64,000 nucleotides of DNA, taken from NCBI RefSeq assembly GCF_046105845.1, contig NZ_CP151004.1; one strand, 5' to 3'. Positions 3,001 through 59,816 of this stretch are shown here, in pieces; positions within the stretch are counted from its first letter, which is position 1, and every line of letters starts with the position of its first letter. The translations under genes were made by a program, and so were the position numbers. The notes beneath the pieces were generated by a model. The model made no database searches and was not told the origin of the DNA. It saw only the letters and a list, made by a program, of their open reading frames with translations. This DNA comes from Escherichia coli. Its GTDB lineage: Bacteria; Pseudomonadota; Gammaproteobacteria; Enterobacterales; Enterobacteriaceae.

Positions 3001-3936
3001 ATGGCACTGCCAATTCTGTTAGATTGCGACCCAGGTCATGACGACGCTATCGCAATAGTTCTCGCCCTCGCCTCACCAGAGCTTGATGTCAAAGCAATTA
3101 CGTCTTCCGCCGGAAACCAGACACCAGAAAAAACCTTACGCAATGTTCTGCGTATGCTGACCTTGCTTAATCGCACCGATATTCCGGTAGCAGGCGGCGC
3201 GGTAAAACCGTTAATGCGTGAGTTGATTATCGCGGACAATGTGCACGGCGAAAGCGGTCTCGACGGCCCGGCATTACCGGAACCGACGTTCGCACCGCAA
3301 AACTGTACGGCGGTAGAGCTGATGGCGAAAACACTACGTGAAAGTGCGGAACCTGTCACGATTGTTTCTACCGGACCGCAAACTAACGTTGCCTTGCTGC
3401 TCAATAGCCACCCGGAACTGCATAGCAAAATTGCCCGTATCGTGATTATGGGCGGTGCAATGGGGCTTGGTAACTGGACGCCTGCGGCTGAATTTAATAT
3501 TTACGTTGACCCGGAAGCGGCAGAAATTGTCTTCCAGTCAGGGATCCCGGTGGTGATGGCCGGTCTGGATGTTACTCACAAAGCACAAATTCACGTTGAG
3601 GACACCGAGCGTTTCCGCGCCATTGGCAACCCTGTTTCAACCATTGTTGCCGAACTGCTGGATTTCTTCCTCGAATATCATAAAGACGAAAAATGGGGCT
3701 TTGTCGGCGCACCGCTGCATGACCCATGCACCATCGCCTGGCTGTTAAAACCGGAGTTGTTTACCACTGTTGAGCGCTGGGTTGGCGTGGAAACACAAGG
3801 GAAATATACCCAGGGTATGACGGTTGTTGATTATTATTATCTGACCGGCAATAAACCGAATGCTACTGTAATGGTCGATGTTGATCGTCAGGGCTTTGTT
3901 GATTTACTGGCTGATCGTCTGAAATTTTACGCTTAA
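3001..3936 (+). CDS. rihA: Pyrimidine-specific ribonucleoside hydrolase RihA
   Basis: Translation from [15 protein letters not shown] (nucleoside hydrolase DxDxxxDD motif); AAGGAG RBS just upstream; longer ORF start at 2968 rejected. Confidence 0.9.
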
Positions 3937-53170: not shown

Positions 53171-53195
53171 ATCATCCTCCACAAAATGATAAAGG

Positions 53196-53216
53196 CTTTA
53201 ATAATGATTATCATTT
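53196..53216. promoter_or_regulatory. Fur box in the divergent entC/fepB promoter region
   Basis: TAATAATGATTATCATTTA closely matches Fur consensus GATAATGATAATCATTATC; a weaker second match lies at about 53315-53335. Confidence 0.6.
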
Positions 53217-53358
53217 ATATTTTCGGTCGCTAACCTAAAAGCAAACGCGCACTATGTCAACTCTTGAGGTAACGCAATCTGCAACTCGGGGTTGCATCTG
53301 GTTGTGGTTACAATGAAAATGAGAAGCATTAACTTCATTAATAACAGGAAGCTGATTT

Positions 53359-55569: not shown

Positions 55570-55642
55570 TACAATGCCTTGCCATCAAATATTTTAAATA
55601 CCTATTCTTAGGCTGCACATGCTAACATATCCAAATAAGATC

Positions 55643-55670
55643 GATAACGATAATTAATTTCATTATCATG
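55643..55670. promoter_or_regulatory. Fur box(es) in the divergent entS/fepD promoter region
   Basis: GATAACGATAATTAATTTCATTATCATG contains overlapping Fur-box hexamer repeats. Confidence 0.65.
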
Positions 55671-55679
55671 GAAGTTCGT

Positions 55680-56684
55680 ATGTCTGGTTCTGTTGCCGTG
55701 ACACGCGCCATTGCCGTGCCCGGATTGCTGTTATTACTGATTATCGCGACGGCATTAAGCCTGCTCATTGGGGCAAAATCACTCCCCGCTTCCGTAGTGC
55801 TGGAGGCGCTCTCCGGCACCTGCCAGAGCGCCGACTGCACCATTGTGCTCGACGCCCGTCTGCCGCGCACCCTTGCCGGTTTACTGGCAGGCGGTGCGCT
55901 TGGGCTTGCCGGGGCGCTGATGCAAACCCTCACCCGAAACCCACTTGCCGACCCCGGCTTGCTTGGTGTGAACGCCGGAGCCAGCTTTGCCATTGTGCTG
56001 GGTGCGGCGCTGTTTGGTTACTCATCCGCGCAGGAACAACTGGCGATGGCCTTCGCCGGGGCGCTGGTGGCCTCATTGATTGTTGCCTTTACCGGCAGTC
56101 AGGGCGGAGGGCAGTTAAGTCCGGTGCGTTTAACCCTGGCGGGCGTGGCGCTGGCGGCGGTGCTGGAAGGGCTGACCAGCGGCATCGCCCTGCTTAATCC
56201 TGACGTCTACGATCAACTGCGTTTCTGGCAAGCCGGTTCGCTGGATATTCGTAATTTACACACCTTAAAAGTAGTGCTGATCCCGGTGCTGATCGCCGGA
56301 GTAACCGCGCTATTACTGAGCCGCGCACTGAACAGTTTAAGCCTTGGCAGTGACACCGCGACGGCGCTGGGCAGTCGCGTGGCGCGCACACAGTTGATTG
56401 GTCTGCTGGCGATTACCGTGCTTTGCGGTAGTGCAACGGCGGTAGTTGGCCCGATTGCCTTTATTGGCCTGATGATGCCGCACATGGCGCGCTGGCTGGT
56501 AGGTGCCGATCATCGCTGGTCGCTGCCCGTCACGCTACTTGCCACCCCTGCCCTGCTGCTGTTTGCCGATATCATCGGGCGGGTGATTGTGCCCGGCGAG
56601 TTGCGCGTTTCTGTGGTCAGTGCCTTTATTGGCGCACCGGTGCTGATCTTCCTCGTGCGACGTAAAACGCGAGGTGGCGCATGA
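55680..56684 (+). CDS. fepD: Ferric enterobactin ABC transporter permease
   Basis: 334 aa from MSGSVAVTRAIAVPGLLLLL. Confidence 0.93.
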   Translation: MSGSVAVTRAIAVPGLLLLLIIATALSLLIGAKSLPASVVLEALSGTCQSADCTIVLDARLPRTLAGLLAGGALGLAGALMQTLTRNPLADPGLLGVNAGASFAIVLGAALFGYSSAQEQLAMAFAGALVASLIVAFTGSQGGGQLSPVRLTLAGVALAAVLEGLTSGIALLNPDVYDQLRFWQAGSLDIRNLHTLKVVLIPVLIAGVTALLLSRALNSLSLGSDTATALGSRVARTQLIGLLAITVLCGSATAVVGPIAFIGLMMPHMARWLVGADHRWSLPVTLLATPALLLFADIIGRVIVPGELRVSVVSAFIGAPVLIFLVRRKTRGGA

Positions 56685-59615: not shown

Positions 59616-59764
59616 GGGGTATAACCTGAAAATGAGTCCAATAGGGGGAAATCTCCACGGCGCTCACTTTACCAGTTGGTGAGAATTATCCGAAGCTGAA
59701 GTTTGTAAATTCCTTCCACTGAATGCAACATTCACTCTATTTAAGAGCAATATCCACCAAACTT

Positions 59765-59816
59765 ATAAATTAAATAAATGATAAACCCATAATCATTTCC
59801 AGTAATTATGGGTTTA
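59765..59816 (-). terminator. Intrinsic terminator after entF
   Basis: Minus-strand hairpin AAACCCATAAT...ATTATGGGTTT followed by T-rich ATCATTTATTTAATTT. Confidence 0.55.

Follow-up and report, generated by a model that had tools for sequence, protein, structure and literature searches.

Two divergent intergenic regions of the enterobactin cluster

The window, the whole 64 kb stretch of DNA that was analyzed, has gltI at one end and the ybdZ/fes side of the enterobactin cluster at the other, and is colinear with Escherichia coli strain AST215 over its full length at ~98–99% identity. Two intergenic regions are the subject here. The first, positions 53171–53358, is exactly the 188-bp spacer between entC and fepB (GC 0.37). 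The second, at 55570–55679, is a 110-bp spacer between the divergent genes entS and fepD (GC 0.31). These four names, already assigned in the initial annotation of the sequence, are those that RefSeq gives the genes in near-identical E. coli genomes. The first region is bounded by the following start codons.

53170, minus strand: entC start codon, ATG
53359, plus strand: fepB start codon, GTG, with a Shine-Dalgarno sequence AGGAAG at 53346–53351

By megablast, the segment 52900–55900 matched 5417 of 5426 complete E. coli genomes at 95–99% identity. It is ~97% identical to most E. coli genomes versus 99.2% identical to AST215, and FepB is 96% identical to the proteins of Escherichia sp. MOD1-EC7003 and E. 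whittamii versus 95% to that of the E. coli species representative. The AST215 and FepB identities suggest that the ent-fep allele carried here may be divergent or recombinant. All 161 bp between the entC ATG and the end of GCATTA (53171–53331) are identical to MG1655, as is every base of the entS-fepD spacer together with the first 21 nt of fepD. Published K-12 footprints (PMC2189734 Table 3) and transcription start sites (PMC3415461) were converted to window coordinates by script.

Fur consensus matches in the window

Every window position was scored on both strands against the published 19-bp Fur consensus GATAATGATAATCATTATC, which is not a curated Fur weight matrix. A Fur box was defined as either a match to the 19-bp consensus GATAATGAT(A/T)ATCATTATC or three or more GATAAT-like hexamers in an array, in each case beyond what chance would give. 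Five places in the 64 kb window reached at least 15/19 matches, four of them within the two intergenic regions.

3823–3841: 15/19, GTTGTTGATTATTATTATC, inside the rihA coding sequence
53200–53218: 15/19, entC-fepB spacer; ATAAATGATAATCATTATT on the minus strand, the best 19-mer register of the entC box
53315–53333, plus strand: 15/19, entC-fepB spacer; GAAAATGAGAAGCATTAAC
55643–55661: 15/19, entS-fepD spacer
55649–55667: 16/19, entS-fepD spacer

The matches fall at three sites, one near entC, one near fepB and one shared by the entS-fepD pair, and all three match the consensus at 15–16 of 19 positions. Under a 7-1-7 model, TGATAATNATTATCA, the best match of the entire window is 53199–53213, with a single mismatch.

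Matches of this kind might be chance products of AT-rich promoter DNA with no part in Fur binding. Both intergenic regions are indeed AT-rich, like the consensus, and an equal 15/19 match lies inside rihA. However, 200 dinucleotide-preserving shuffles of the window gave a mean of 0.085 places with at least 15/19 matches, versus five observed. When the spacers alone were shuffled (2000 trials), local dinucleotide shuffles reached the observed maximum in just 0.1–0.25% of trials (P ~0.0025 for entC-fepB and 0.001 for entS-fepD). Matches of at least 14/19 at 3823, 26962, 47637 and 57118, all in coding sequences (rihA, dpiB, cstA and fepG, respectively), were set aside as chance. Intragenic Fur sites in E. 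coli are on record (PMC2189734); the rihA match at 3823–3841 is most likely a chance one.

Separate promoters and operators of entC and fepB

Combining the consensus matches with the transferred K-12 footprints and start sites gave the following layout for the entC-fepB spacer.

53176–53224, minus strand: entC Fur operator, equivalent of the 49-bp K-12 DNase I footprint (PMC2189734 Table 3) and identical to MG1655
53199–53217, minus strand: core entC Fur box TAATAATGATTATCATTTA, +8 to +26 of entC; 'Fur box 2' of PMC5020551
53224, minus strand: entC transcription start, giving a 54-nt leader; K-12 start 624054 of Kim et al. 2012 (PMC3415461 supplement file 2)
53232–53260, minus strand: entC promoter, -35 TTGACA (53260 to 53255), 17-bp spacer, -10 TAGGTT (53237 to 53232)
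53292–53320, plus strand: fepB promoter, -35 TTGCAT (53292–53297), 17-bp spacer, -10 GAAAAT (53315–53320)
53309–53339: equivalent of the 31-bp K-12 fepB footprint, its first 23 bp (53309–53331) identical to MG1655 (PMC2189734 Table 3)
53315–53333, plus strand: fepB Fur box GAAAATGAGAAGCATTAAC, -13 to +6 of fepB, over the -10 and the start site
53328, plus strand: fepB transcription start, giving a 31-nt leader (53328–53358); K-12 start 623950 (PMC3415461 supplement)

The entC and fepB hexamers were read from the sequence, and their placement fits the mapped K-12 start sites. The entC operator covers +1 to +49 of the transcript and contains an array of GATAAT-like hexamers. The initial annotation had reported the core box of this array at 53198–53216; the sequence is present and matches Fur as claimed, one base further along at 53199–53217. 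It had also rightly placed Fur boxes in both divergent promoter regions, while overlooking the second entC-fepB box at 53315–53333. Both boxes have named K-12 counterparts, 'Fur box 2' ATAAATGATAATCATTAT for entC and 'Fur box 1' AAAATGAGAAGCATTATT for fepB (PMC5020551). Fur box 2 is described as lying downstream of its +1, -10 and -35 (PMC5020551), in agreement with the mapped entC layout.

With one box reported in the 188-bp region, and with the adjacent entS-fepD pair governed by one common operator, the box at 53199–53217 could be read as a single bidirectional operator shared by entC and fepB. Several observations make this extremely improbable. An equal-scoring box at 53315–53333 sits over the fepB -10 and start, whereas the entC box lies upstream of that start by more than 110 bp. 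In K-12, two distinct regions are protected (PMC2189734) and two non-overlapping Fur boxes have been described (PMC5020551), and the ~85 bp between the sites is unprotected, much of it poorly conserved. The entC and fepB starts are 104 bp apart and the boxes, also separate, ~100 bp apart; neither operator overlaps both divergent promoters. The entC-fepB region is thus made up of two sigma-70 promoters placed back to back, each with an operator of its own, rather than a shared box. On a plasmid, the two non-overlapping Fur boxes of fepB-entC work in both directions, and iron controls expression both ways from the cloned region (PMC5020551).

One operator for entS and fepD

The entS-fepD spacer is organized differently, with the features below.

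55611–55647, minus strand: entS promoter, -35 TTATCG (55647 to 55642), 17-bp spacer, -10 TAGCAT (55624 to 55619)
55611, minus strand: entS transcription start, giving a 42-nt leader, with a minor start at 55583; K-12 starts 621481 and 621509 (PMC3415461 supplement)
55620–55635, plus strand: fepD promoter, extended -10 TGcTAACAT (55620–55628), no good -35
55635, plus strand: fepD transcription start, giving a 45-nt leader; K-12 start 621457, 81 reads (PMC3415461 supplement)
55630–55698: equivalent of the full 69-bp fepD-entS footprint, a primary and a weaker secondary region, identical to MG1655 (PMC2189734 Table 3)
55643–55670: entS/fepD Fur operator core GATAACGATAATTAATTTCATTATCATG, +9 to +36 of fepD and -32 to -59 of entS
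55670–55674, plus strand: fepD Shine-Dalgarno GGAAG, preceding the true start codon ATG at 55680–55682 (the RefSeq start)

The operator core lies exactly where the initial annotation had put its second box. It comprises two overlapping 19-mers offset by six bases, with 15/19 and 16/19 consensus matches, and reads as the hexamers GATAAC GATAAT t AATTTC ATTATC. On opposite strands, the entS and fepD -10 hexamers have 2 bp in common, and 24 bp separate the two starts; here a single operator, an array of five hexamers, overlaps both divergent promoters. The footprint extends from -6 to +64 of fepD, reaching into the first 19 nt of the coding sequence. Gel shift of a fepD-entS oligonucleotide by Fur has been published (PMC2189734). 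A table quoted in the same paper lists three Fur dimers for the entS oligonucleotide, with a Kd of ~3 nM, and two for that of fepB (PMC2189734).

The core ends at 55670, about 10 bp before the fepD ATG at 55680, as the initial annotation had remarked. It had offered two ways to accommodate this spacing, a very short fepD leader or an operator within the transcribed region. The second is correct, the core occupying +9 to +36 of a 45-nt leader. A promoter inside or just past the Fur box, yielding a nearly leaderless mRNA, finds some encouragement in a pattern scan that returns TCGATA-17-TATCAT at 55641–55669, with a start ~4 nt before the ATG. We consider this very unlikely in view of the K-12 start at 55635, with its 81 reads and 45-nt leader, the conserved extended -10 TGcTAACAT that precedes that start, and the conserved GGAAG at 55670–55674 before the invariant ATG at 55680. 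The generic promoter scan recovered none of the four real promoters, which have weak hexamers or an extended -10, and its pseudo-promoters inside Fur boxes were dropped in favor of the mapped start sites.

A mechanical open reading frame list begins fepD at an ATG at 55668–55670, within the Fur box (MEVRMSGS...). We rejected this in-frame ATG as the fepD start: its T is kept in only ~30% of species, whereas the ATG at 55680 is invariant and has a Shine-Dalgarno sequence.

Conservation and published Fur binding

A scan with FepB, using one genome per species, gave 80 Enterobacteriaceae loci from genera including Escherichia, Citrobacter, Salmonella, Klebsiella, Raoultella, Enterobacter, Kluyvera, Leclercia and Kosakonia. 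The four gene starts were placed by tblastn and the spacers aligned, leaving 50–56 distinct sequences. Conservation is given as mean identity to the window.

entC box: 0.93
entC footprint (53176–53224): 0.86, over 55 other Enterobacteriaceae sequences
entC -10: 0.96
entC -35: 1.00
fepB -35: 0.99
fepB box: 0.95
entS/fepD box: 0.90
entS/fepD overlapping -10 and start block (55611–55642): 0.89
three spacers of the entC-fepB region: 0.51 (entC promoter spacer), 0.49 and 0.39 (fepB promoter spacer)
entS leader: 0.59

The Fur boxes are therefore conserved at 0.90–0.95 versus 0.39–0.51 for the adjacent AT-rich spacers. The entS/fepD box retains 16–17 of 19 consensus matches at the aligned position in all 50 distinct sequences, the window included.

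Published experiments bear on the same DNA. DNase I footprints at entC, fepB and fepD-entS carry information scores of 23.1, 16.7 and 20.1 bits, respectively (PMC2189734 Table 3), and because the sequence is identical to K-12, the published entC and fepD-entS matrix scores apply directly here. With the K-12 starts mapped, the Fur boxes overlap or lie directly downstream of the core promoters of iron-uptake genes. In uropathogenic strain CFT073, Fur ChIP-seq peaks reach a height of 2860 at entC/fepB and 3485 at entS/fepD, and fur-/wild-type RNA ratios are 676 for entC, 21 for fepB, 84 for entS and 79 for fepD (PMC7157518 supplement). Absence of ChIP peaks had been named at the outset as grounds for abandoning the Fur assignment; peaks are present at both regions. 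Together with the K-12 footprints on identical sequence, the CFT073 peaks and RNA ratios bear out the iron regulation that had been proposed. Box conservation in excess of the neighboring AT-rich spacers, along with published footprints and ChIP peaks on identical sequence, effectively refutes the view that the Fur matches arose by chance in AT-rich DNA, which we regard as vanishingly improbable.

Fur repression and relation to known systems

Both regions are almost certainly classical operators for repression of enterobactin genes by Fe2+-Fur, with three operator clusters rather than two. Our own contribution to this reading consists of the sequence matches, their significance, the identity to K-12 and the conservation; footprints, start sites, ChIP data and derepression in fur mutants come from publications.

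Dimers of Fe2+-Fur polymerize on the hexamer arrays. At fepB, Fur bound over the -10 and +1 would exclude RNA polymerase, as would Fur bound over the -35 at entS. At entC, with the operator just downstream of the start, the predicted block falls at the formation of the open complex, at promoter escape or in early elongation. The same candidate steps would apply to fepD, where the operator is similarly placed and where the extended footprint (-6 to +64) and the interpenetrating entS promoter may provide an additional route. Binding and repression are published, whereas the transcription step blocked by Fur at each promoter is one that we infer.

The essentials of both regions are already known, having been established in 1990–2002. 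In the K-12 fepB-entC region (Brickman, Ozenberger & McIntosh 1990, J Mol Biol 212:669; via PMC2189734 and PMC5020551), the genes, the promoters and the two separate operators are the same as here, and the start sites fall on equivalent bases within sequence that includes the 161 bp identical to MG1655. K-12 differs in having a 186-bp BoxC/triplex insertion, starting 4 nt after the fepB start, that this strain does not have. In the K-12 fepDGC-entS (ybdA) region (Christoffersen et al. 2001, J Bacteriol 183:2059; Lavrrar et al. 2002, J Mol Biol 322:983; via PMC2189734), a single Fur site serves overlapping bidirectional promoters; all of this recurs here without detectable difference, down to the F-F-x-R-R arrangement of the single hexamer array, the overlap of the -10 elements and the 69-bp extent of the footprint. 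At fepA-fes, as at entS-fepD, one Fur site serves two divergent iron-uptake promoters (PMC2189734 list).

The fepA-fes region, which brings the Fur-controlled divergent regions of the ent cluster to three, lies just outside the window; the window stops beside ybdZ, no more than ~75 bp into fes. The operators treated here are among the founding examples of Fur control and have been footprinted, mutated, mapped by ChIP and reused in expression vectors. Our results confirm the annotation of the window and correct it to three operators and to a 45-nt fepD leader that contains an operator.

The fepB leader and the K-12 insertion

The principal departure from K-12 lies in the fepB leader. This strain is without the 186-bp insertion that K-12-like genomes carry after GCATTA (53331), 4 nt into the fepB transcript. 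As a result, the entC-fepB spacer measures 188 bp here versus 374 bp in K-12, and the fepB mRNA begins with a leader of 31 nt where K-12 has 217 nt. The final 8 bp of the K-12 footprint at fepB also differ, reading ACTTCATT here versus TTGATGGA in K-12. Beyond ~53331, on the distal side of the fepB operator, this strain has the AT-rich sequence ACTTCATTAATAAC. Because those last 8 bp of the K-12 footprint lie in the insertion absent here, the fepB operator of this strain may end differently from that of K-12 on its promoter-distal side.

The insert holds an inverted pair of BoxC/PIT 'TMECO' intrastrand-triplex motifs, numbers 7 and 8 of Holder et al. 2015, at MG1655 624579–624614 and from 624676 onwards (PMC4666352), inside the fepB-entC spacer at 624511–624884 (PMC5020551). 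Genomes carry the BoxC/TMECO element at a median of 6 places. The long form, with the 186-bp insertion, is found in 2755 of 5426 complete E. coli genomes, the remainder having the short form. In Enterobacteriaceae, 47 of 68 loci have a spacer of 187–188 bp, which argues that the short form is ancestral and the K-12 insertion derived. Variability at the TMECO locus is already published, and in the CFT073 study the fepB 5' sequence was flagged as not conserved with MG1655 (PMC7157518).

The two leaders also differ in predicted structure. The K-12 fepB leader folds as a long hairpin (-98 kcal/mol, z = -3.7), while the 31-nt leader here is unstructured (z = 0.19). An Rfam scan of 50–60 kb of the window at E ≤ 1 found no known leader RNA element or sRNA. 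Judging from sequence comparison, the short leader and the altered distal 8 bp could make Fur repression, mRNA stability or FepB translation strain-dependent, K-12, the strain that serves as biochemical reference throughout, being the derived and atypical state; we hold this tentatively and lean somewhat against it. The fepB leader of K-12 nonetheless reflects a derived insertion, which this strain and about half of E. coli do not have, and caution is warranted in transferring K-12 regulatory coordinates.

Other insertions were seen in the entC-fepB spacer. A 101-bp insertion in E. whittamii, at the equivalent of 53328–53331, has the terminal sequences of the K-12 element with most of the GC-rich center missing, which suggests either partial deletion of a palindrome or an independent shorter copy. 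Unrelated insertions of 20–156 bp occur in further species, that of Klebsiella grimontii at ~53273–53276. In Salmonella enterica subsp. arizonae, a 126-bp insertion at ~53198 aligns beside the entC Fur box, and presumably belongs with the ERIC/IRU elements, which it resembles. Small repeats seem to have landed repeatedly in the entC-fepB spacer.

Other elements near entF and fepE

Two further elements were noticed in the cluster. In the fepE promoter region (59680–59700, minus strand), the K-12 start-site record has a palindrome, GGATAATTATCACC, between the -35 and -10. This palindrome resembles a Fur half-site; the window reads GGATAATTCTCACC, in which one base is changed and the palindrome broken. 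Just past entF, at 59765–59815 on the minus strand and between entF and fepE, lies an inverted repeat rich in AT, ATAAACCCATAAT...ATTATGGGTTTAT, with a T-rich run after it. The repeat has 12/19 matches to the Fur consensus, and may be a weak terminator or attenuator.
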